Positions 56 through 52,193 of a stretch of 64,000 nt of DNA are shown piece after piece. The DNA is taken from the sequence record MK327941.1, one strand, 5' to 3'. Numbering within the stretch: position 1 is the first letter of the stretch; each line of letters opens with the position of its first letter. The stretch is from Escherichia phage vB_EcoM_G37-3. A program made the translations under genes and the position numbers. Under the pieces are notes generated by a model. That model saw only the letters and a program-made list of their open reading frames with translations. It did not search any database and was not told the origin of the DNA.

Positions 56-1642
56 ATGAAAACTACCAAAGAACTGATGGAAAAATGGTCCCCGCTGCTG
101 GAGAACGAAAAACTGCCGGAAATCGCAACTGCGTCTAAGCAGAAACTGGTTGCTAAAATTCTGGAATCTCAGGAAGCGGATTTTGCTGTAGACCCGATCT
201 ATAAGGATGAAAAAGTTGTTGAAGCATTCGGTGGCTTTATCGCAGAAGCCGAAGTTGCTGGCGACCACGGTTATGACGCATCTAATATCGCGGCTGGTCA
301 GACTACCGGTGCAATCACCAACGTAGGTCCGGCTGTTATCGGTATGGTTCGCCGTGCTATCCCTAACCTGATCGCATTTGATATTTGTGGTGTTCAGCCG
401 ATGAGCACTCCGACTAGCCAGATCTTTGCAATCCGTTCTGTATACGGTGGCGATCCGCTGAAATCTGGTGCTCGCGAAGCATTCCACCCGATGTATGCAC
501 CTGATGCGTTCCATAGCTCTCTTGCTGCTAAAGGTGCAACCGTAGGTTCACCAACTGGTACTGCATTCGCTAAACTAACTCTTTCCCAGGCTATCGCTGC
601 TGGTGATATCGTATATCACACCTTCGCAGAAACTGGTATTGCGTATCTGCAAAACGTAACTGGTGATTCTGTAACCCCTACCAAAGCAGGTCAAGAAACC
701 GAAGACGAAACTGTTATGAAACTGATCGAAGAAGGTAAATTGGCTGAAATCGCTTATGGTATGGCTACTTCCATTGCCGAAATTCAGGAAGGCTTTAACG
801 GTTCCAGCAATAACCCGTGGGCTGAAATGTCAATGCGTATTGACAAACAGGTTGTTGAAGCGAAATCTCGCCAACTGAAAGCCCGTTACTCTATCGAAGT
901 TGCGCAGGATCTGCGTGCTGTACACGGTATGGATGCTGACGCTGAACTGAATGCTATCCTGGCTAACGAAGTTCTGCTGGAAATCAACCGTGAAATCGTT
1001 GACGTCATCAACTTTACCGCTCAGGTTGGTAAGACTGGTATGACTCAGACCGTTGGTTCTAAAGCTGGTGTATTTGACCTGCAAGACCCGATCGATACTC
1101 GCGGTGCTCGTTGGGCTGGTGAATCCTTCAAATCTCTGATCTACCAGATCGACAAAGAAGCTGCTGAAATCGCTCGTCAGACTGGTCGCGGTGCGGGTAA
1201 CTTTGTTATCGCTTCCCGTAACGTTGTAAACATCCTGGCTTCTGCTGATCAGGGTATCAGTCTTGCTATGCAGGGTGCTGCAAAAGGTCTGAATACCGAC
1301 ACCACTAAAGCTGTTTTCGCTGGTGTTCTGGCTGGTAAGTACAAAGTGTTCATCGACCAGTATGCTCGTCAGGACTACTTCACTGTAGGTTACAAAGGCG
1401 ACAACGAAATGGATGCTGGTATCTACTATGCTCCGTATGTTGCTCTGACTCCGCTGCGTGCAACTGACCCGCAGTCTTTCCACCCGGTTCTGGGCTTCAA
1501 GACTCGCTATGGCATCGGTATTAACCCGTTTGCAGACAGCAAATCCCAGGCACCGTCCGCTCGCATCACCTCCGGTATGTTGAGCAAAGACAGCGTAGGT
1601 AAAAACGCATACTTCCGTCGTGTATGGGTTAAAGGTTGCTAA
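56..1642 (+). CDS. 23: Major capsid protein gp23
   Basis: 528 aa; near-colinear with remembered T4 gp23 (PEIA...AKI..., GDHGY, MVRRAIPNLIAFDICGVQPM, KNAYFRRV). Confidence 0.95.
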   Translation: MKTTKELMEKWSPLLENEKLPEIATASKQKLVAKILESQEADFAVDPIYKDEKVVEAFGGFIAEAEVAGDHGYDASNIAAGQTTGAITNVGPAVIGMVRRAIPNLIAFDICGVQPMSTPTSQIFAIRSVYGGDPLKSGAREAFHPMYAPDAFHSSLAAKGATVGSPTGTAFAKLTLSQAIAAGDIVYHTFAETGIAYLQNVTGDSVTPTKAGQETEDETVMKLIEEGKLAEIAYGMATSIAEIQEGFNGSSNNPWAEMSMRIDKQVVEAKSRQLKARYSIEVAQDLRAVHGMDADAELNAILANEVLLEINREIVDVINFTAQVGKTGMTQTVGSKAGVFDLQDPIDTRGARWAGESFKSLIYQIDKEAAEIARQTGRGAGNFVIASRNVVNILASADQGISLAMQGAAKGLNTDTTKAVFAGVLAGKYKVFIDQYARQDYFTVGYKGDNEMDAGIYYAPYVALTPLRATDPQSFHPVLGFKTRYGIGINPFADSKSQAPSARITSGMLSKDSVGKNAYFRRVWVKGC

Positions 1643-1727
1643 TATAAGCCATTCCTGAAAAACTTCGGTCGGGTGCAATACCCGACTTATCATAAACCTT
1701 ATGACAGTGTAAAGTGTTAATTCCAAA

Positions 1728-1757
1728 GGGAAGACTCGAAAGGGTCTTCCCTTTTGC
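1728..1757 (+). terminator. Rho-independent terminator after gene 23
   Basis: GGGAAGACTC-gaaa-GGGTCTTCCC hairpin followed by TTTTG. Confidence 0.6.
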
Positions 1758-1771
1758 GTATTATATCCCGT

Positions 1772-1779
1772 TATAAATA
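1772..1779 (+). promoter_or_regulatory. Late-promoter-like TATAAATA in the 23-24 intergenic gap
   Basis: Exact TATAAATA; no long ORF follows for about 360 nt. Confidence 0.4.
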
Positions 1780-2142
1780 AGGTTGCAAGCCTATATTCTA
1801 TTTGGAGCGAAAATAGATACACACAACAAAGACAGGAAGATGCAGAACATCGGTGGGTTGCGATCCTAAATCCGGTGGCTATGATATGTGATTGATTTTG
1901 ATGCGGGATTTATTAAAACACAACAAACAATTCCACCAATTTTCGTAGTAACTGCATGGCAAAGGACCAATGAATGAGATGAGCGTTCATGCTGTGATAT
2001 TGGGTCGGATAGATTTGGTAGATATACAGATCTGGTGTATGCCGACCTTGTTATGACATTCCAGCGTGACGCTAGCGGTAATTTTTTGGTTTTGGTACGC
2101 TGTTCCCTGAATTAACCCAAAATTCTCCATAAGGAGGAATGC

Positions 2143-2295
2143 ATGAGTAAGAAAGAAAACAGCTATGTTATGACTCGTAAGGAATACAACGAATTGATGT
2201 TAGCATTAGCTTATGCAATTATTCGTTCTGATCATGCAATTAATCTGGTAAACAAAGTTAACCGTAGCGTTGATAATGTTTCTAGGAAGAAGTAA
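2143..2295 (+). CDS. Small hypothetical protein (50 aa)
   Basis: ATG preceded by AAGGAGG at proper spacing; ORF MSKKENSYVMTRKEYNELML...; below the ORF-track length cutoff. Confidence 0.4.
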   Translation: MSKKENSYVMTRKEYNELMLALAYAIIRSDHAINLVNKVNRSVDNVSRKK

Positions 2296-2334
2296 GTTTA
2301 TTTTTGGAATCCTTTGGATTCCTTTTTCTTTTTG

Positions 2335-2342
2335 TATAAATA
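2335..2342 (+). promoter_or_regulatory. T4-type late promoter for gene 24
   Basis: Exact TATAAATA about 38 nt upstream of ATG 2380. Confidence 0.6.
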
Positions 2343-2379
2343 TGATATATCCATTAAGGCAAATACAGGATTCATAAAC

Positions 2380-3621
2380 ATGACTCATATTTTTACTGAA
2401 CTGTTGCGGGAATCTACTTCCTCAGTAGCTAACCAGACAGCGCGACCGCAACTATTATCATTAACTCGCGCGGTAAACAACCTGATTTTCTCTGATCTGG
2501 TAGCAATCCAGCCAACGGATCAACCAGTATCTGCATTGTACGGCCTACGTTATCTTAATCATGATGGTCAGATGACTTTCCGAACTGCTGCAACCTACGG
2601 TGGCGCGGTTGGTGATCGCACAGAGATTGAAGAGTTTTCAAAAGAAAAATCTTATGACGAAGGCGCACTATTCAAATCAGGCGATGTTGTATACGAAGTT
2701 GTGACCGCTGGTACAGTCGGTGAAGATGCCGAAACTCCAGAAGCTGCGATCTTTAAAGGCGTAATGACAAACAAAATTCGTTTCTATAGCGATTGTGCAT
2801 CGGTAGAATACTTTGAAGATAAAAACACCGAAATTGCGTCTACCTCTATGCAGTTTGACAAGTGGCAAGTTAATGTAGGTTCTCGTAAACTGAAAACCTC
2901 GTTCACCACTGAATTAATGCAGGATCTTGAGGCAAGCCAAATCAACTCTGAAAACTCTGTAATTGATCTTCTGGCTACTGTTGCTTCCGAAGAGATCAAC
3001 AAAGATATTATTCAGAAGTTGATCACTGTATCATCTCGCTATAAAATTAAAGGGATCACCCCTGATGGCGTACTTTCTCTCGTTAGCGTTCAGGATGCAC
3101 CAACACAAGCGCGTGAACTTTACCGCTATGCTTGCGAGATGAGCAATCAAATGTTGCGGACTTCCTCCTTTGCTGGTACATACGTTTTGGCGTCTTCTCG
3201 CGTGGTTGGCCTCCTGCAATCATCCGGTTGGATGGAAGAAACCGACAATGCTCTAAGCGAAGGTCGTCTGCGTTGCGGTCTGGAAGTGTACGCAGACACG
3301 ACAACACCTTTCGATTATATGCTCGTTGGTTGTAAGCACATGATCGGTGATATGGAGAGTGTAGGTTCTCTGTTCTACTCCCCATATACAGAAGCCGACG
3401 GCGCTGGCGCGTATAAGAGCGTAATTGACCCTAATAGCTTCCAGCATCATGTAGCTATTATGAATCGTTATTCACTCTCTGTCAACCCATACACATCAAA
3501 AGTTGATCAGGAAGAACACCAGGTCATCAAGGGTGACGATTGGGGTAAAATGGCTGGGCGTTCAGAAATGTCCTACATTTTAGGAATCGAACTGCCACCG
3601 CTTGAGATTGACAACGCTTAA
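2380..3621 (+). CDS. 24: Capsid vertex protein gp24
   Basis: Homology to T4 gp24 (ELLRESTS, KWQ..V.SRKLKT, MAGRS); start placed at internal ATG 2380 with upstream AAGG. Confidence 0.9.
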   Translation: MTHIFTELLRESTSSVANQTARPQLLSLTRAVNNLIFSDLVAIQPTDQPVSALYGLRYLNHDGQMTFRTAATYGGAVGDRTEIEEFSKEKSYDEGALFKSGDVVYEVVTAGTVGEDAETPEAAIFKGVMTNKIRFYSDCASVEYFEDKNTEIASTSMQFDKWQVNVGSRKLKTSFTTELMQDLEASQINSENSVIDLLATVASEEINKDIIQKLITVSSRYKIKGITPDGVLSLVSVQDAPTQARELYRYACEMSNQMLRTSSFAGTYVLASSRVVGLLQSSGWMEETDNALSEGRLRCGLEVYADTTTPFDYMLVGCKHMIGDMESVGSLFYSPYTEADGAGAYKSVIDPNSFQHHVAIMNRYSLSVNPYTSKVDQEEHQVIKGDDWGKMAGRSEMSYILGIELPPLEIDNA

Positions 3622-4209
3622 CTAAATATCTAACCAAGACAAGTCAGATCCGCCAAAGATTTTTTCGACGGCGGATCTATTTTCTTGATGATATAAGTTA
3701 AAACATGGTATCCCATGTCTACGGGCAACATAAACAGCAATTCGAGTTCCTCCCGAAACGATTCCATTAACTTCTTTCGCCCAGAATATCACACAATCTA
3801 CAGGGTCATCAAGTGTCTCACCTAAGACTTGAGCGACATTTCTAGAAAACAGATTTTGCATGTATAACGGTATAGAACGAGGATTATCATAAACGTGTTC
3901 TAATTCATCCATCGCCAGATTTTTTTGTTCTAAGGTTTGCCATGCAATCACATCATGACCGTTATGCTTGTGGTCATAAAACTTCCAATTTGGAATGAAA
4001 ATTTTTCTATAATCTGGATCGTAATACTTCATGAAAGCATTGTCCATACCGTAAGCCCCTCCAGAATGCGCTACAACGCGATTTTCTGACAATACCCTCC
4101 CAATGGTACTAGCCATTATCAAAATGTCGCTAGGCGCTTTTCTAGAGCCGATTAAAGCACATCTACGAAGTGGTTTTACTCCAAATAGATCTTGTAACTG
4201 GTCAAACAT
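3622..4209 (-). CDS. SLOG/DprA-like Rossmann-fold protein (hypothetical)
   Basis: 195 aa; ALIGSRKAPSDIL...VVAHSGGAYGMDNAF resembles the DprA/Smf nucleotide-binding core; GGAGG RBS before ATG. Confidence 0.4.
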   Translation of the reverse strand: MFDQLQDLFGVKPLRRCALIGSRKAPSDILIMASTIGRVLSENRVVAHSGGAYGMDNAFMKYYDPDYRKIFIPNWKFYDHKHNGHDVIAWQTLEQKNLAMDELEHVYDNPRSIPLYMQNLFSRNVAQVLGETLDDPVDCVIFWAKEVNGIVSGGTRIAVYVARRHGIPCFNLYHQENRSAVEKIFGGSDLSWLDI

Positions 4210-4324
4210 AATATTTCCTCCATAGAAAGCAATATCATACTACAAGTTAATAACAAATACAAGTATCCGCGTAGCGGAAGCGAGCACAGCGAGCAATAAA
4301 ACACTTCCAGTAATTGATTAATAA

Positions 4325-4540
4325 ATGTTCGAAACAAATTTTTATTATTCTATAAGATAAGTCTTCGTTTTGATCATAATTTAATCATACATGTAAAAAC
4401 TACACAAAAGGATATCGCTTCGCGAACTCCTACGGAGTATAACATTTGTGTTACAATATGTAGTGATTAATAATTAACCAAAGATACATTTTCTATGTTC
4501 TAAAGATCTTTCTTCGTTTTGATCATAATTTAATCAAACA
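4325..4540 (-). repeat. Two copies of a conserved intergenic element (core AAAACGAAGA...ATCTT.TAGAA.ATAGAAAAT)
   Basis: Direct repeats TCTTCGTTTTGATCATAATTTAATCA at about 4362 and 4512; third copy at 57204-57292 on the opposite strand. Confidence 0.6.
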
Positions 4541-4589
4541 GTATTAATATTGTGCACATGTAAACTAAAATTATGTTAATAACAGATAC

Positions 4590-24851: not shown

Positions 24852-24924
24852 TGTTTGATTCTCCTAAATGGTATCTCGTTTCGATGTGTGTATTATGCTA
24901 TAGGCCGGATCTGGTGTCAATGCC

Positions 24925-38212: not shown

Positions 38213-38279
38213 TTGATTCTCCTTAAAGTGTATTTCGTTTCGATGGGGGTATATTACTACCCCCGTTTCATGCTGTCAA

Positions 38280-38498: not shown

Positions 38499-38567
38499 TT
38501 TGATTCTCCTTTGTTTCGTTTCGATGGGAGTATCTTACTACCCCCGTTATTCAGTGTCAACTACTTT

Positions 38568-38786: not shown

Positions 38787-38846
38787 ATGTTCCTCCGTTT
38801 CGATGTGCGTATTATGCTATGGCAAGATCAGATTGTCAACACCCAA

Positions 38847-39363: not shown

Positions 39364-40523
39364 AGATATTTCCCGAATCGGTTGTAGTCGTCGTCTGTTA
39401 AATCGGTATTAACCTGAGATACCAGATACATAATCTCTACTTCTTGCGCTGCATTCTGTACTTCGTCAGAGTTCAACCATTTACGCATCCACGGTAACGG
39501 ATGACGACGAACACTAAACGGGCTTTTCAGTCCGGCAGCACGCATACGGGAATCTGCCAGGTATTCTACATAGGTTTTCAGAATTTCCGGTGACAGGTTA
39601 GGAATTGCCCCCATTGCGAATAGGTGGTCTACCCATTCTTTTTCTTGCTCGACAACATCCAGAAAGATTTTCGTTGCTTCACCTTCAAGTTCTTCCGCAA
39701 TCTGTTTCCACTCATCACCATCAACCCCCGTTTGCCATTGACGAATAATGTATTGTGTGCCTTTTAAGTGAAGTTGTTCATCACGCGCAATAAATTTCAT
39801 GATCTTCGCGTTACCTTCCAGTAAACCACGTTCGGCAAAGCTGAAAGTACATGCAAAGGACACATAAAAACGAATTGCTTCCAGTGCATTGACGCAGTGT
39901 GCACACAGATAAATCGAAGCCATCAGATCTCGTTTTGTATCTTCAAAAAATCTTCTTGCATCATCTAATGCTGTCTGGTCGTCTCGTTCTTCCCAATAGC
40001 GGAGATCTTCTTTTGCATTCTCATACTTACGAATCCAATAAAGAACATCATCATAATATTTCCCGATAGATTCCGCTCGCTTCATGATAGCAGGGTTATC
40101 GATGATCTGGTCGAACTCACTAGCCGGATCAATGAAACAGTTACGCATAATGTGTGTATAGCTTCGGCTATGAATCGTTTCGCTGAATGTCCATGTTTGC
40201 AACCATGTATCGAGAGTTGGATCAGATACAATTGGACCAAATACACGGGCTGGCGCTCTGCCTTGAATCGAATCTAGCAAAGTTTGATAACGTAAGTTCT
40301 CGGTGAAGAAACGCTTTTCAACATCGCTCATATTCAGATATTGAATGCGGTCAGTTGCAAGTGAAATCTCTTCTGGACGCCAGAAAAATGACAACTGCTT
40401 CTCGATCAACTCTTCAAATACTTGATGACGCTGAATATCATAACGAGCAATCCCTAAATCACTACCAAAAAACATCGGTTCGGTCATAATATCAACATGT
40501 TCACGATTAAATACGCTCATCAC
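39360..40523 (-). CDS. nrdB: Ribonucleotide reductase small subunit
   Basis: 387 aa; R2-type ferritin-like motifs; synteny. Confidence 0.85.
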   Translation of the reverse strand: MMSVFNREHVDIMTEPMFFGSDLGIARYDIQRHQVFEELIEKQLSFFWRPEEISLATDRIQYLNMSDVEKRFFTENLRYQTLLDSIQGRAPARVFGPIVSDPTLDTWLQTWTFSETIHSRSYTHIMRNCFIDPASEFDQIIDNPAIMKRAESIGKYYDDVLYWIRKYENAKEDLRYWEERDDQTALDDARRFFEDTKRDLMASIYLCAHCVNALEAIRFYVSFACTFSFAERGLLEGNAKIMKFIARDEQLHLKGTQYIIRQWQTGVDGDEWKQIAEELEGEATKIFLDVVEQEKEWVDHLFAMGAIPNLSPEILKTYVEYLADSRMRAAGLKSPFSVRRHPLPWMRKWLNSDEVQNAAQEVEIMYLVSQVNTDLTDDDYNRFGKYL

Positions 40524-41062
40524 TATTCTCCATCAATTTTGTTTATATTGTAACCCATGTTGCCTTTTTCTATTTCTCTCAACGCAACTGAATTAAACGC
40601 TCTTGCCGCATCTTGTTCGCTATCAAATCTCCCTATATGAACACTCTTTCCTTGTATATTAATATGAACTAGCCATCTATTTGTGTACTTACACCAACTT
40701 ACCCCGTTATATTTTGATGATGCACCTTTAAATTTAGTTCTGTTTCGATTGTTGACAGAATAATCAGTACCTCGTAAATTTTCTATATGATTGTTCAGCT
40801 TGTTTCGGTCGATGTGATCTATAACTTTAGGCTTATGCCCGTGAAACATATGATAAATCACATGATGTATTAACTTCTTTCTATTGTCTACTGTTAGTTG
40901 AAGATATCCCCCATTATGTGGACTTCCAACCTCATCACCAACTTTAACTTTATTGCTTGTTGAAACCTTTCTGAAAAGTTTACCATCTTCGTATTTAAAT
41001 AGATAATGATACCTTTCGTAAAGTATTCGGTCCTCTTCCGTATAATGTATTACCTCATACAT
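40523..41062 (-). CDS. HNH-AP2 homing endonuclease (mobE-like position)
   Basis: HNH (HHVIYH...IDHIDRNKLNNHIENLR) plus AP2 domain (YNGVSW...GRFDSEQDAARAFN); located between nrdA and nrdB. Confidence 0.65.
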   Translation of the reverse strand: MYEVIHYTEEDRILYERYHYLFKYEDGKLFRKVSTSNKVKVGDEVGSPHNGGYLQLTVDNRKKLIHHVIYHMFHGHKPKVIDHIDRNKLNNHIENLRGTDYSVNNRNRTKFKGASSKYNGVSWCKYTNRWLVHINIQGKSVHIGRFDSEQDAARAFNSVALREIEKGNMGYNINKIDGE

Positions 41063-43788: not shown

Positions 43789-45009
43789 TTATACTGCCAT
43801 TTGAGCGGTGATCGCTGGATGGCTTTGATAGTTGTGAATTTTAAAATCTTTCGGAGTCTTTGTCAATACCTCATCTAAAGATTTAAATTCCGGCAACTCA
43901 ATTGTTGGTTTATCAAACGGAACACGGCTTAACTGTTCCATAACTTGATCAAAATGGTTTTTGTAAATGTGAGTATCTCCACCAGAGAAAATCAGTTCTC
44001 CTACCTCAAGATCACACATTTTCGCTATGATGTGAGTTAACAGCGCATAGCTGGCGACGTTAAAGGGCAAGCCCAAAAAGCAGTCTACGCTTCGCTGAAA
44101 CCACATACAAGACAGTTTACCTTCATTGACGTAGAATTGTACGAACGGATGACATACACCCAATACAGCATTATGTGTTCCTTGTACGTTCCATGAGTCA
44201 ATGATGATACGTCGATCCGTTGGATTGTTTTTAATTTGTTCAATCACGTTTTGTAACTGGTCTTCCCAAATCTTCGGGCGATAGACATATTCTTCATCGT
44301 CTTTAGTGCTTGATGTGTCTACGTCCATACTAACAAACATCGTGGTATCCGGTGCTATAATATCCCCACCCAGATAATCACTATCAAGCAGATAACCGAA
44401 ATAACCATCATCTACCCATTCCTGGAATCCCCACAAGCAATATGCATCATTAACAAAATTAGATTGAGTCTTCCAGTGGTCTGCTACCAGAATATAATCA
44501 AACTCTTCATAACGCATACCACGCCAGATAGCACATAAACGGTCTTCTGTGTCATTGGTTGGCGTAAAGTCTTCTACCCACGGGTGCTTAAATGTATGTG
44601 TATATTTGCTCTTAACGCGCTTAATTTTGATTTCACCATGTGGATGAATCGGTTTGCGTCGCCACGCCATACCATACATATTGCCGACATTATAACCATT
44701 GAATCGCAAGGGATTCTTTTCTTTCATATCAAGACAGTTGCCGCGCCAAATATCAAAGGCTTCCTCGTCAAACTTGCCGCGTGTAATTTCCTGTAAGCGA
44801 CGGCGGTCAAGTGATCCATCCATAAACCATAGCAATTCGCCAATTACAGAGGCTGTAGCCATCTTTTTAGTGGTCAGTAATGGGAAACCCTTGCTTAAAT
44901 CAATTCGCATCTCTGCGCCGAATTTAGAGAGCGTACCTACCCCCGTGCGGTCTTCACGAGGACAGCCATTATCAAGAACATCACGCAATAGTTTCAAATA
45001 TTCTTTCAT
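43789..45009 (-). CDS. td: Thymidylate synthase with about 125-aa internal insertion
   Basis: TS motifs (DRTGVGT, RRIIIDSWN, VCHPFVQFYV, RSVDCFLGLPFNVASYALL, GDTHIY) in one 406-aa ORF; T4 Td is 286 aa. Confidence 0.8.
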   Translation of the reverse strand: MKEYLKLLRDVLDNGCPREDRTGVGTLSKFGAEMRIDLSKGFPLLTTKKMATASVIGELLWFMDGSLDRRRLQEITRGKFDEEAFDIWRGNCLDMKEKNPLRFNGYNVGNMYGMAWRRKPIHPHGEIKIKRVKSKYTHTFKHPWVEDFTPTNDTEDRLCAIWRGMRYEEFDYILVADHWKTQSNFVNDAYCLWGFQEWVDDGYFGYLLDSDYLGGDIIAPDTTMFVSMDVDTSSTKDDEEYVYRPKIWEDQLQNVIEQIKNNPTDRRIIIDSWNVQGTHNAVLGVCHPFVQFYVNEGKLSCMWFQRSVDCFLGLPFNVASYALLTHIIAKMCDLEVGELIFSGGDTHIYKNHFDQVMEQLSRVPFDKPTIELPEFKSLDEVLTKTPKDFKIHNYQSHPAITAQMAV

Positions 45010-45343: not shown

Positions 45344-45925
45344 TTACGCCTTCTTACGTTCTAAAATTTGTTCGCTGATCAGGTAATCATCAAGGAAGTA
45401 ATTATGTTCTTCTTTTGTTGCAAAGTCAAAATATAATTCCTGAATCATTTCCTTAGAGATGCCAACATCATATTCAAACGGATCATTAATTCCTGGTCGT
45501 TGAACATACGTTAACACAATACGGTCCGCAAAGTCAACTGCTTTTTCAATCAGGGAAGGTCCGCCAATAACGCTTACCAAACCTTGCAATTTCTCTATGA
45601 CTTCTAATAATTCCTTCAATCCACCATCATTAGTAATCGCGGTATACACATCTGGTTGGTCGCCGTTTTTTGCTTTCGGTGCTGGCTTACTGGTATCGGT
45701 GCTAACAACCACATTCACACGACCTTCCAGTGCTTTAGGGAGACTTTCAAAGGTATTACGTCCCATTACAACCGCCGCAAGATCAACATCTCCCATAGTG
45801 CGCATTTTAAAGTTTTCCATGTCCTTTTTGATTGGACGTCCCCACGGTAAACCGCCTTTAAAACCAAAAGCCCAATTTTCATCTGACATTTTAGTATCAC
45901 CAATCGCAAATACACATTGAATCAT
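45344..45925 (-). CDS. frd: Dihydrofolate reductase
   Basis: 193 aa (same as T4 Frd); GLPWGRP motif. Confidence 0.85.
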   Translation of the reverse strand: MIQCVFAIGDTKMSDENWAFGFKGGLPWGRPIKKDMENFKMRTMGDVDLAAVVMGRNTFESLPKALEGRVNVVVSTDTSKPAPKAKNGDQPDVYTAITNDGGLKELLEVIEKLQGLVSVIGGPSLIEKAVDFADRIVLTYVQRPGINDPFEYDVGISKEMIQELYFDFATKEEHNYFLDDYLISEQILERKKA

Positions 45926-45940
45926 AATATAAATCTCCCA

Positions 45941-46270
45941 TCAAATCAGTTTGAAATAGTTTTCGTTTACATTTTCTTCTGTGATTGCTGTCTTAAATTC
46001 TTGACCGTTATCCGGTGTGATGAAATAACGGTCAGAATAATCACGAAAACGTTTTAAGTGAGATACCCCAACATTAACACCATTTTCCCAAAAACGAAAG
46101 GTAATCATTTTTGGTTCATATCGATAGTCGCTGGTTAACACAGTACCATCACCGCGACGGGCTTCATAAACCGTAATACATTCACGATTAGCGGCTTTAA
46201 GGCATTCTTCAATAGTGCCGCATGAGATAATACTTACTTTTTCATCTACGATTTGTTCTACAGTCCACAT
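45941..46270 (-). CDS. Hypothetical protein
   Basis: Start ATG 46270 with GAGGAT RBS; sigma70-like promoter upstream. Confidence 0.5.
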   Translation of the reverse strand: MWTVEQIVDEKVSIISCGTIEECLKAANRECITVYEARRGDGTVLTSDYRYEPKMITFRFWENGVNVGVSHLKRFRDYSDRYFITPDNGQEFKTAITEENVNENYFKLI

Positions 46271-46317
46271 AATATAATCCTCTCTTTGTTTCGATATGTG
46301 CATTATACACTATTGCG

Positions 46318-47541
46318 TTACGCTGTCAACTCTTTTTCAAAAGATTTTACGATATACATGATGGTGCTCAATTCGGACGGCGCTACTGTCTCTGTGTAGC
46401 CATCCGGCATATCTTCTTTCGAGATATAGGAAGTTTTACCTTTCATTGCTTCCTTGATTTTGTTCTCTAATTCTAAGATCTTTTGACCGTCTTGTAAAGT
46501 CAATTCATAAAAGATCTCATGATCGAACTTTGAAACACGAGATTGGTTTCTCATGCGCTCATGTGTTTCTTTGTTTGTTATTCCAAATTTCACGCCAACA
46601 AAGGAATCATTGTTGGTTAATTTCTGTATATAAAGAGTTCCTGTCTTTAATGCCTGATAACCATGCTTAGAACACAACGGGCAGCGTGTTCCGCGATTAA
46701 CAAAATTATCAATAGTTACATCCCATTCATGGTTACGTTCGCATGTCAGAAGTATTCTTGTTAATGCACCTTTCCACTTTCCTGAAATCCCAATAAATTT
46801 TAGTCTGTTGGTTTCGCATATTTTTTTAATTTGTTTTAATCGGTCACTTTTTGTTATTGGTGCTGTTCCGCTACATTTGCGACACCGACGACCTAGTTTG
46901 AACTTATCATAACTTTGTTCGTAAATGTGATTATTAGGACACTCAAATTTAAGTTTAGTTTTTGTTCCTCTCCATTCCCCAATTATACCCAAAAATTTAT
47001 AATCTCCTTTATTTTCATTTATATAAGATAAGGAATCTTCTTTATCATGCATCTTGCCCCCGTTACATAAAGGACATCTTGTTTTTTGATGAATGAAATC
47101 TGTATATGTTGGTTGGTATGTGTGTCCGTTTGTACAGTTCATAATGAGTCTTGTTCTGCTATTTTTATACTCCCCACCAACAAAACCAACAAATACATCG
47201 TTTGTTTCTTGTTTTATTCTTTCTATCACATTGTTTGGGTTTAATCTTTGAGAATCAACCACACATTTCTTACACGAAACTTTTTTCCTGATATTTGCTA
47301 GAGTTGATGTGTATTCATGCTTGTTATTACATAATATAAGAGCTTTTGTTTTGAGACCAGACCATTCTCCAACAAACCCCATGAAAGAATAACCAACTTC
47401 CAAACATGAATTTTTTACAACATTTTCCCAATAGAAGGGAGTTTTCGTGTTTCCTTTTATTTCTATACGAATCTCGTGTGCTTGACGTACCAACATATTT
47501 TTATCCTCCGTTGTTTCGATGATTGTATTATACATTACCAC
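46318..47541 (-). CDS. Zinc-ribbon-repeat protein with C-terminal T5orf172 (GIY-YIG-like) domain
   Basis: Four repeats of F.G..GEW.G..T...L.C...H.....Y..F....RC..C; C-terminal GTLYIQKL...VGVKFGITN..THERMRNQ. Confidence 0.5.
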   Translation of the reverse strand: MVMYNTIIETTEDKNMLVRQAHEIRIEIKGNTKTPFYWENVVKNSCLEVGYSFMGFVGEWSGLKTKALILCNNKHEYTSTLANIRKKVSCKKCVVDSQRLNPNNVIERIKQETNDVFVGFVGGEYKNSRTRLIMNCTNGHTYQPTYTDFIHQKTRCPLCNGGKMHDKEDSLSYINENKGDYKFLGIIGEWRGTKTKLKFECPNNHIYEQSYDKFKLGRRCRKCSGTAPITKSDRLKQIKKICETNRLKFIGISGKWKGALTRILLTCERNHEWDVTIDNFVNRGTRCPLCSKHGYQALKTGTLYIQKLTNNDSFVGVKFGITNKETHERMRNQSRVSKFDHEIFYELTLQDGQKILELENKIKEAMKGKTSYISKEDMPDGYTETVAPSELSTIMYIVKSFEKELTA

Positions 47542-47615
47542 ATCAGCATGTCAATACATTTTCATAAAATTTTAGGCAATAAAAAAGCCTTCCCGAAGGA
47601 AGGCTTTAAAATTCA

Positions 47616-48590
47616 TTACATCCCTAACAGAGCGTCAAGATCATCCAGATCAGAAGCGGAGGAAGTACCGCCACCCAGGTCCAGAGATGCCATCAGATCA
47701 TCAGCGGAAGAATCTAACGCCGTGCTAGCTGCGTTAATACCAACTACAGTGCTAACCGCGTTAATACCAGCATCGAATGCATTCATCTGTGCGTCAAAAT
47801 CGTCAAGCTGGCTGTTAATCGCTGCCGCAGCACTGGAAGCCGCAGCACCAGCTACCATAGACACACCCATAGTTTTCTTAAATTTGGTTTCCAGTTCATC
47901 GAACGGTTTAAACTGGCTAGGCGCTACAATCTCACTCAGGTCAACCATGTTTTCCATCAGATATTTCTGATATGCTTCGTCTTCAATTTTCGGAAGCTGT
48001 GATTGCTGCATGAAACGAGAATCATCATAGTTCTGGTGTTTATCAACCTTCTTAGCTTTCAGGAGGAAGTTAGCACCGGAGAACACACAAGTTACATCTA
48101 CCGGAACTTCGCCCATATCGGTATTCACGTTCACCATTGCAACGATCTTATCATAAATTTTCTGACCGAAGCGGAATTTGAATACCTTACCTTCATTTTC
48201 TGGTGCTTGAGGATCTTTCAGTACCAGAATATTTGCGTAGTAAGAGGCTTTACGCTTAATCAGTTGCCATTCGGTTTTATCGGTATTGTACAGGTCTTTT
48301 TCGTTAATATATTTGCACACAGGGCAAGAATCAAAATCACCGTGGGTGCTTGAGCAGTTTTCCCAATACCATTTACCATTAACTTTGAAGGAATGGTTTA
48401 CCAGTTTCACAATCGGCAGACCGTCTTCTGTCTTAGACGGCAGGAAGCGAATCAGGGCTTCACCGTTACCTGCTGCATCAGTCTTAATCTTCCACTCTTT
48501 CGGATCTTCTTTGGAGAAACCGTTGCCACCTTTCAGTGCGGCCAGTTGAGCTTGCAGTTTGGAAGAATCTTGGCGTTTAAACATATTCAC
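47616..48590 (-). CDS. 32: Single-stranded DNA-binding protein gp32
   Basis: Strong match to T4 gp32 ([49 protein letters not shown]). Confidence 0.95.
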
Positions 48591-51611: not shown

Positions 51612-52193
51612 TCATCCTCTTTTTGGAAAATTTAAATAAGCATACTCGCCAACTATTTCATGTGCTGCACGGTCATAAGCCTTAGCCGCCTCAACTTCTG
51701 TCTCAAAGTATCCTAGATGTATATTCTTTCGATTGATAACAATATACGCCTTCCACGGCTTTTTCTTGCTTGGTGATAATGATACACCTTTATATTTGCT
51801 ATGGCAAGCCTTTTTCTTTGAGACGTTAAACTGATTTTGCTGTTCGGTTGCTTCTCTCATGTTTGACGGTCTATTGTTAGTTTTGTCTTGGTCTATGTGA
51901 TCTATTCGTTCAACCTGAGTACCATACTCTAAAAACCAGACAACTCTATGTACAAACAGATTAAGTTTATGACCATTGTTGTAAAATGTAAAGTATAAAT
52001 ATCCTTCTTTATGGAGACATACCCTTACCACATCACCTTTTTTGTATATGGACCCTTCTTTTCGGAATCCAGCAGCTACAGAATCCTTTAAATGGTATAA
52101 TATTCCATCGACATGATAGAATCTACCTTTTATCGCTTTCTGTGTCTCGATATCCCAAAATTTTGTTTTTGCCACAACAAACACCTCACACAA
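51612..52193 (-). CDS. HNH-AP2 homing endonuclease
   Basis: HRVVWFLEYG...IDHIDQDKTNNR (HNH) and YKGVS...GYFETEVEAAKAYD (AP2); between rnh and gene 34. Confidence 0.6.
   Translation of the reverse strand: MCEVFVVAKTKFWDIETQKAIKGRFYHVDGILYHLKDSVAAGFRKEGSIYKKGDVVRVCLHKEGYLYFTFYNNGHKLNLFVHRVVWFLEYGTQVERIDHIDQDKTNNRPSNMREATEQQNQFNVSKKKACHSKYKGVSLSPSKKKPWKAYIVINRKNIHLGYFETEVEAAKAYDRAAHEIVGEYAYLNFPKRG

Follow-up and report, generated by a model that had tools for sequence, protein, structure and literature searches.

Homing endonuclease genes (HEGs) of the T5orf172 type encode repeated zinc-finger DNA-binding domains, and their DNA-binding regions are exchanged on homologous nuclease domains (Barth, Dunham & Seed 2023, PMC10448857). 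In this study we analyzed a gene lying between gene 32 and frd in a stretch of 64,000 nucleotides (nt) from Escherichia phage vB_EcoM_G37-3 (MK327941.1). The whole stretch is hereafter called the window; it comes from an RB49-like T4-type coliphage of the genus Krischvirus. Our analysis suggests that this gene (46318..47496, on the minus strand, as are all window features described below) is very probably a free-standing HEG of the CapR-zinc-finger/T5orf172 type, within the GIY-YIG superfamily. The exact protein is already in GenBank and the architecture of the family is published; the window gene is an uncharacterised member of a known family.

The described T5orf172 HEGs with CapR/DUF723/DUF4397 repeats, found in ICP1 (gp165, gp174 and gp121), in T5-like phages and in Vibrio phages (PMC10448857), show the same order of parts as the window gene, with CapR-type modules at the N-terminus and a T5orf172/MUG113-type domain at the C-terminus. 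They are likewise free-standing, located beside essential replication genes and variable in repeat number, and they too show signs of recombination in which the nuclease domain is retained and the DNA-binding region replaced. The window gene differs from them in its host lineage, the T4-type Krischvirus; T4 itself has no T5orf172 genes, and RB49, GEC-3S, Krischvirus and JSE are not listed in the supplements of that study (PMC10448857). Further differences are a nuclease domain too divergent for the Pfam T5orf172/MUG113 thresholds used there, ligands arranged as C-x3-H...C-x2-C where CapR has CxxC...CxC, and a locus that hosts at least five intact alleles, a truncated remnant, a small open reading frame (ORF) cassette that is not a HEG and an empty state.

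Comparison with the T4 Seg GIY-YIG endonucleases, SegG in particular (Edgell, Gibb & Belfort 2010, PMC2988022), revealed likenesses of position. The segG gene is also free-standing, lies beside gene 32 in the orientation of its neighbours, carries the promoter of the downstream gene within its coding sequence and is sporadic among relatives. Unlike segG, the window HEG lies on the other side of gene 32 (32/frd, not 32/59) and has an early sigma70-type promoter. Its nuclease domain is C-terminal and not N-terminal, its DNA-binding part is a four-module zinc-finger array, and it falls in the T5orf172 branch and not in the classical GIY-YIG Pfam family.

PLE CapR (Netter et al. 2021, PMC8096241) is an experimentally tested zinc-finger DNA-binding module whose binding to DNA depends on its cysteines; it is a repressor with one module and lacks a nuclease. 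ICP1 Odn/Gp88 (Barth et al. 2021, PMC8263062) is a tested T5orf172 nuclease with a catalytic glutamic acid (the E180A mutant is inactive), which carries a RepA_N DNA-binding domain and targets a satellite origin. In contrast to both, the window protein joins four modules to a nuclease, as would be expected of the selfish form before domestication. RB49p240 (NP_891811) occupies the identical locus behind the same promoter and is ~97% identical over the last ~80 residues but 44% overall; it has five modules and 485 amino acids, and its array is at most ~50% identical per module. T5p137 (AAU05276), annotated as similar to RB49p240, combines CapR modules with the same C-terminal domain, but it has two modules and lies in the tail-gene region of an unrelated phage.

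Zinc-finger modules and C-terminal domain

Analysis of the protein against Pfam revealed four stretches matching the CapR homology domain PF21817 (E 1.1e-29; 102.8 bits against a cutoff of 24.2), and the DUF4379 'treble clef' model PF14311 also matched (E 2.5e-11; 44.1 bits against a cutoff of 24.5). All four modules contain C-x3-H followed, 14-15 residues on, by C-x2-C. They recur with a period of 64-67 amino acids (~65), share a conserved core of 41 amino acids running from FxGF to CxxC and are 32-39% identical among themselves. Taking the PF21817 matches, the motif positions and an AlphaFold2 (AF2) model together, the core of module 1 was placed at residues 38-78 (47263..47385; predicted ligands C56, H60, C75 and C78), that of module 2 at residues 104-144 (47065..47187; C121, H125, C141 and C144), that of module 3 at residues 168-208 (46873..46995; C186, H190, C205 and C208) and that of module 4 at residues 235-275 (46672..46794; C252, H256, C272 and C275). 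The AF2 model gives module 1 beta strands at 37-42, 51-55 and 61-65 and helices at 66-70 and 76-83, and module 4 is the best Pfam CapR/DUF4379 stretch. The predicted ligand set is CHCC in each module, compared with the CCCC set reported for CapR. Judged by sequence, these are CapR/DUF4379 zinc-finger modules, and they are predicted to bind metal and DNA.

The C-terminal domain comprises residues 278-392 (115 amino acids; 46321..46665) and has the beta-beta-alpha-beta-alpha core of the GIY-YIG fold. In GIY-YIG enzymes the catalytic tyrosine is located in strand 1, the arginine in helix 1 and the glutamic acid in helix 2. The candidate catalytic residues of the window protein, Y289 (strand 1), R314 (helix 1) and E344 (helix 2), may correspond to these and are accompanied by the conserved motifs K303-F-G-I-T307 and G366-Y-T-E-T370. 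Alignment of 131 sequences revealed E344, G366, E369 and T370 to be invariant and Y289, K303, G305, I306, T307, R314, G337 and T368 to be at least 90% conserved.

With the 115-residue domain as query, phmmer retrieved 450 proteins (E<=1e-3) from 1.8 billion representatives. When 130 of the phmmer homologues were scanned with Pfam, 50 matched MUG113 (PF13455), 20 matched T5orf172 (PF10544), two matched GIY-YIG and 78 matched CapR, the best matches reaching 5.8e-8 for MUG113 and 8.5e-8 for T5orf172. In the eight checked members that have a MUG113/T5orf172 match, it falls inside the stretch aligned to the C-terminal domain of the window protein. A word-indexed protein search with the domain alone returned eight close, truncated relatives, none of them labelled with a nuclease-domain Pfam. 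From this transitive homology and the conservation of residues, we place the C-terminal domain in the T5orf172/MUG113 branch of the GIY-YIG superfamily.

An earlier note on this DNA, made from the letters alone, had described four tandem modules of about 40 amino acids ending in paired cysteines (RC..C) and a C-terminal block (LYIQKL, VKFGITN, RMRNQ) resembling T5orf172/GIY-YIG. The four cysteine-paired modules are real, being the four PF21817 stretches; the length of 40 suits the conserved core but not the period, and RC..C holds for three of the four modules, module 1 having SCKKC. The C-terminal block is also real and is conserved in the 131 sequences. Its T5orf172/GIY-YIG-like assignment fails directly, the Pfam score being below threshold, but stands through the homologues that match MUG113 and T5orf172. 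The profile matches on which the note had staked its reading were therefore half forthcoming: the zinc-ribbon half was answered by the CapR/DUF4379 profiles above cutoff, the T5orf172 half by no direct match.

The ORF 46318..47541 was confirmed and is the mechanically longest one, with 407 amino acids from a GTG. The true start is almost certainly the ATG at 47496 inside this ORF, which gives 392 amino acids plus the stop codon, since GTG 47541 lies within a promoter, a GGAGG is found before the ATG and the same coding sequence is annotated in relatives (GEC-3S, AV108, GoldenSnicker, Skers and Makalu). The GGAGG, a Shine-Dalgarno sequence at 47505..47509, lies 8 nt upstream of the ATG; it was read from the sequence and is an annotated ribosome-binding site in Makalu. 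GTG 47541 was ruled out as the start, as it falls in the spacer of the promoter 47554..47527. Coding sequences of identical length in GEC-3S, GoldenSnicker and Skers are labelled 'endonuclease' or 'putative GIY-YIG nuclease family protein', and the window protein matches PHROG 681 'endonuclease' (E 7e-101).

States of the site, promoters and possible exchange of arrays

The site was compared in relatives whose flanks are 91-100% identical. It is empty in JSE, PHB13 and LF73P4, with the boundaries at the promoter and the leader. The 392-residue allele of the window occurs in GEC-3S, AV108, GoldenSnicker, Skers and Makalu, and in frameshifted form in FL15, while other intact alleles encode 485 (RB49), 486 (Whisky), 417 (FL37) and 541 amino acids (JEP8). 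In FL15 (stretch ~1419..2600) the gene is broken into two annotated ORFs by one additional G near codon 223, which reflects either a genuine pseudogene or a sequencing error. MIZ4 retains a remnant of 182 amino acids (locus stretch 2019..2567) that consists of the last module and the nuclease domain only; ~380 nt of non-coding DNA follow it. An unrelated cassette with an ORF of 109 amino acids is present, with or without a HEG, in G5211, Makalu and FL37. This small ORF (MFLNA...), distinct from the 109-residue ORF found downstream of the HEG in the window, has no PHROG match and uses the same two promoters as the HEG. It stands alone in G5211 (2015..2344 of the locus stretch) and downstream of a HEG in Makalu (2015..2344) and FL37 (2027..2356). 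MIZ4 (3981..4577) and Skers (3840..4278) also have an HNH endonuclease between gene 32 and gene 59, which is the position of segG in T4.

Six phages share the 392-residue allele at 97-100% nucleotide identity. In the same six phages the identity is 90-99% for frd, 77-100% for the downstream 109-residue ORF, 89-100% for the promoter/terminator spacer and 86-97% for the 3' end of gene 32. Conservation of the HEG thus exceeds that of its surroundings, a pattern that recent horizontal spread would produce. Of the 667 records of a phage database that contain a protein match, seven are at least 95% identical, and all others are below 60%.

The HEG has its own early sigma70-type promoter, TTGACA-16-TATAAT (47527..47554), which agrees with the consensus at 12 of 12 positions and is annotated in GEC-3S. 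Directly upstream of it lies the intrinsic terminator of gene 32, a 10-bp stem with a T run (47584..47607; annotated in GEC-3S and Makalu), and the two together form a PeSL-like element. The promoter after this terminator is kept in all relatives and drives the downstream 109-residue ORF in phages with an empty site. A second sigma70 promoter (46302..46329; 12 of 12, annotated in GEC-3S) serves the downstream 109-residue ORF, frd and td; its -35 element TTGACA coincides with HEG codons L390-T391, and the HEG stop codon TAA lies within its spacer. HEGs such as T4 segG are known to contain promoters in their coding sequences, an arrangement believed to favour their retention (PMC2988022).

Comparison among relatives revealed two promoter types at the site. 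The first, with spacer TGCTGATGTGGTAATG, is invariably located behind the gene 32 terminator and serves whichever unit comes next, be it the HEG, the small ORF or, where the site is empty, the downstream 109-residue ORF. The second, with spacer GCGTAACGCAATAGTG, follows every HEG allele and small-ORF cassette and drives the downstream 109-residue ORF. Common to both is the leader TATAAT-N5-CATCGAAACAA, of which the window contains 10 copies, all on the minus strand, against 0.58 expected. The motif TATAAT-N5-CATCGAAAC(A/G)A gives 10 minus-strand sites from 21794 to 47532, examples being 24876..24897, 38235..38256, 38516..38537 and 38795..38816. The upstream element has a stem-loop terminator and a 12-of-12 promoter, as in a PeSL cassette, and the downstream element has a 12-of-12 promoter and the same leader without a stem-loop; the leader motif agrees with the PeSL early-promoter cassettes reported for RB49/phi1 (PMC2839356). 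A target-site duplication was considered as the origin of the paired promoters and rejected, because the same two promoter types flank the non-HEG cassette and the leader motif occurs genome-wide.

Nucleotide comparison with other alleles revealed where identity breaks. RB49 matches the window across the left flank and the last ~105 HEG codons up to 46632, the start of the nuclease domain; identity is lost across the array and returns at 47494, at the start codon and promoter. The breaks lie at 46641 for FL37 and at 46416 and 47470 for Whisky. In ~35 protein clusters from genomes and metagenomes, with total lengths of 262 to 541 amino acids, the nuclease domain is 74-97% identical to that of the window HEG and the arrays are 25-40% identical. 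The number of modules is four in the window, five in RB49 and Whisky and six in JEP8, whose modules share one near-identical consensus and thus point to recent internal duplication. A tentative reading, which we hold possible but doubtful, is that the gene 32-frd site is a natural 'specificity-swapping' locus, where arrays of ~3-6 modules may be exchanged, expanded (JEP8) or lost between the conserved nuclease domain and the promoter with the first codons as fixed anchors of recombination, and where competing alleles of different DNA specificity may replace each other. A protein of 266 amino acids (P0024), with 60% identity across the last modules and the nuclease domain, carries the label Bacillus atrophaeus and comes from a 4.4-kb contig; it is probably phage contamination of the assembly and not a Bacillus gene.

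The right flank of the insertion site is gene 32, which encodes the single-stranded DNA-binding protein (47616..48590); its 3' 285 nt are 86-98% identical among relatives and hence more variable than the remainder (97-100%). The left flank is the downstream 109-residue ORF (45941..46270; phrog_16287, function unassigned), followed by frd (45344..45925). Over this interval (45344..46270) each of the two genes is biallelic, frd with ~90% versus 97-99% and the ORF with 77-78% versus 98-100% nucleotide identity. The alleles of the two assort independently among relatives, leaving a mosaic of exchange boundaries beside the HEG site.

The location between frd and gene 32 given in the earlier note is correct, with the addition that the 109-residue ORF also lies in this interval, and the sigma70-like promoter it had proposed for the gene is present with a perfect consensus. 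It had also suggested checking whether the gene is absent from close relatives, which it is, cleanly so in JSE, PHB13 and LF73P4, with other alleles or remnants in other relatives. Its suggestion of a DNA-binding protein, possibly associated with a mobile element, gains support from the CapR modules, the empty sites and the alternative alleles.

Proposed mechanism and alternative explanations

The mechanism that we propose for the HEG presumes cleavage, a target site, homing, and binding of metal and DNA. Early in infection, the HEG would be transcribed by host sigma70 RNA polymerase, starting at the consensus promoter that it possesses just behind the gene 32 terminator. The four CHCC zinc modules and their helical linkers would read an extended DNA site and tether the C-terminal nuclease, with Y289, R314 and E344 as its putative active-site residues. 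In a mixed infection with a relative lacking this allele, the nuclease would cut the genome of the relative in or near the 32-frd interval, and recombinational repair from the HEG-carrying genome would copy the gene together with adjacent markers (intronless homing with co-conversion). With the promoter of the downstream operon embedded in the last HEG codons, insertion would not silence the downstream genes and clean deletion would be disfavoured. The flanking PeSL-type promoter repeats and the conserved DNA of the nuclease domain may serve as homology anchors for loss or gain of the cassette and for swapping of arrays.

Several observations weigh against this reading. Neither the whole protein nor the isolated domain matched T5orf172, MUG113 or GIY-YIG at the Pfam threshold; T5orf172 gave no match at E<=1, and the best Pfam match of the isolated domain was MUG113 with 13.8 bits (E 0.088) against a cutoff of 22.3. 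NCBIfam gave no match for the nuclease domain, and four allelic or related proteins were also below threshold in Pfam and NCBIfam. A hidden Markov model profile of 56 homologues found nothing meaningful among all PDB sequences, and hhalign returned no alignment of the domain alignment with the I-TevI catalytic domain, whose sequence was verified to be 100% identical to T-even td-intron records. Y289, R314 and E344 are therefore only putatively equivalent to I-TevI Y6, R27 and E75. No target site is deducible from flank divergence, the flanks being mosaic (biallelic frd and 109-residue ORF, variable 3' end of gene 32) without a clean match to the HEG allele. Very different arrays at one site are awkward for the notion of one HEG with one target, and PeSL-type promoter repeats could explain gain and loss without nuclease activity (PMC2839356). 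HEG-specific promoters in T4 are middle or late, never early (PMC2988022), and the early promoter found here differs from them. The dN/dS ratio (nonsynonymous to synonymous) among copies of the 392-residue allele is 0.05-0.5, derived from 4-19 substitutions, which are too few to decide.

One alternative sees the gene as a passive or decaying passenger. It would once have been a HEG but have lost the ability to cut, and its patchiness would arise from recombination between the flanking PeSL-type promoter repeats and not from homing. The perfect promoter repeats with their common leader do flank the gene, and a cassette that encodes no nuclease is inserted or absent at the same site with the same two promoters (G5211, Makalu and FL37). 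For ORFans of RB49/phi1, circles excised through PeSL have been demonstrated (PMC2839356), and frameshifted and truncated copies of the HEG exist. We nevertheless consider this explanation unlikely, as none of the putative catalytic residues has been lost and all are invariant or nearly so in the 131 homologues, the 392-residue ORF is intact in five other phages with few and mostly synonymous-biased differences, and the nuclease domain keeps 74-97% identity in the ~35 clusters whereas the arrays diverge, which speaks for selection on the nuclease. PeSL recombination and homing are compatible mechanisms and do not exclude each other.

Another alternative, which appears quite improbable, is a domesticated HEG-derived nuclease or DNA-binding protein that serves conflict and not its own propagation, either excluding competing phages or satellites as ICP1 Odn does or acting as a regulator at promoter regions as PLE CapR does. 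The gene is dispensable, since some otherwise near-identical phages are viable with an empty site or a pseudogene, and the PADLOC defence models gave no match. Both kinds of domestication are documented in the family (PMC8263062, PMC8096241), but CapR is without the nuclease domain that the HEG retains. An immediate-early promoter, unlike the timing of T4 HEGs, would fit a role in exclusion or regulation, and the combination of diverse arrays with one conserved nuclease resembles an arms-race pattern; marker exclusion, however, is a normal by-product of homing. That the zinc-ribbon protein ends in a non-nuclease domain with a spurious resemblance to T5orf172/GIY-YIG is highly improbable, despite the lack of a Pfam match at threshold, the failed hhalign comparison with I-TevI and a Foldseek search of the full-length model against the PDB that returned only insignificant, repeat-driven matches.

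Genome context and significance

The 3.4 kb around the HEG share 99.0% identity with phage AV108 and 97.6% with GEC-3S. Gene 59, gene 32, the HEG, the 109-residue ORF, frd and td follow one another in this order, and every gene of the region reads on the minus strand. The thymidylate synthase ORF (43789..45009) encodes 406 amino acids and has an apparent internal in-frame insertion at about residues 125-245; T4 Td has 286 amino acids, so that the window protein is ~120 amino acids longer. The td segment 43900-44300 is ~80% identical to JSE and LF73P4, whereas other parts of td are 96-100% identical.

Within the 64-kb window, no paralogue of the 392-residue HEG protein was found elsewhere. Two further HEGs of another type are present. 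The free-standing ORF 40523..41062, between nrdB and nrdA, encodes an HNH endonuclease of 179 amino acids with an AP2-like C-terminal region (phrog_99, E 3e-48); PHB13 and LF73P4 lack it at this position, where JSE carries a different annotated 'homing endonuclease'. The ORF 51612..52193, directly upstream of gene 34, encodes an HNH/AP2-like endonuclease of 193 amino acids (phrog_99, E 2.5e-46); it is missing in JSE and LF73P4 and is present in PHB13, where it is annotated 'homing endonuclease'.

Our reading of the gene as a probable HEG corrects its annotation to that of a selfish nuclease gene and not a phage replication or regulatory function. Its presence or absence would explain the variable patch beside gene 32 in RB49-like phages, some of which were isolated for therapy. 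The CapR/T5orf172 HEG family is thereby extended to a T4-type lineage, where screens at Pfam thresholds miss the HEG. With an empty state, five intact alleles bearing different arrays, a remnant and a frameshifted copy, which is an uncommonly large choice of variants for an otherwise fairly ordinary type of gene, the locus constitutes a convenient natural system for the turnover of HEGs and the swapping of their arrays. The immediate-early promoter and the downstream promoter in the last codons bear on how HEGs avoid harm to their host and their own deletion. Should the tentative specificity-swapping reading hold, and if each module of ~65 amino acids reads a defined DNA sub-site, the locus would offer a naturally modular, re-programmable nuclease scaffold.

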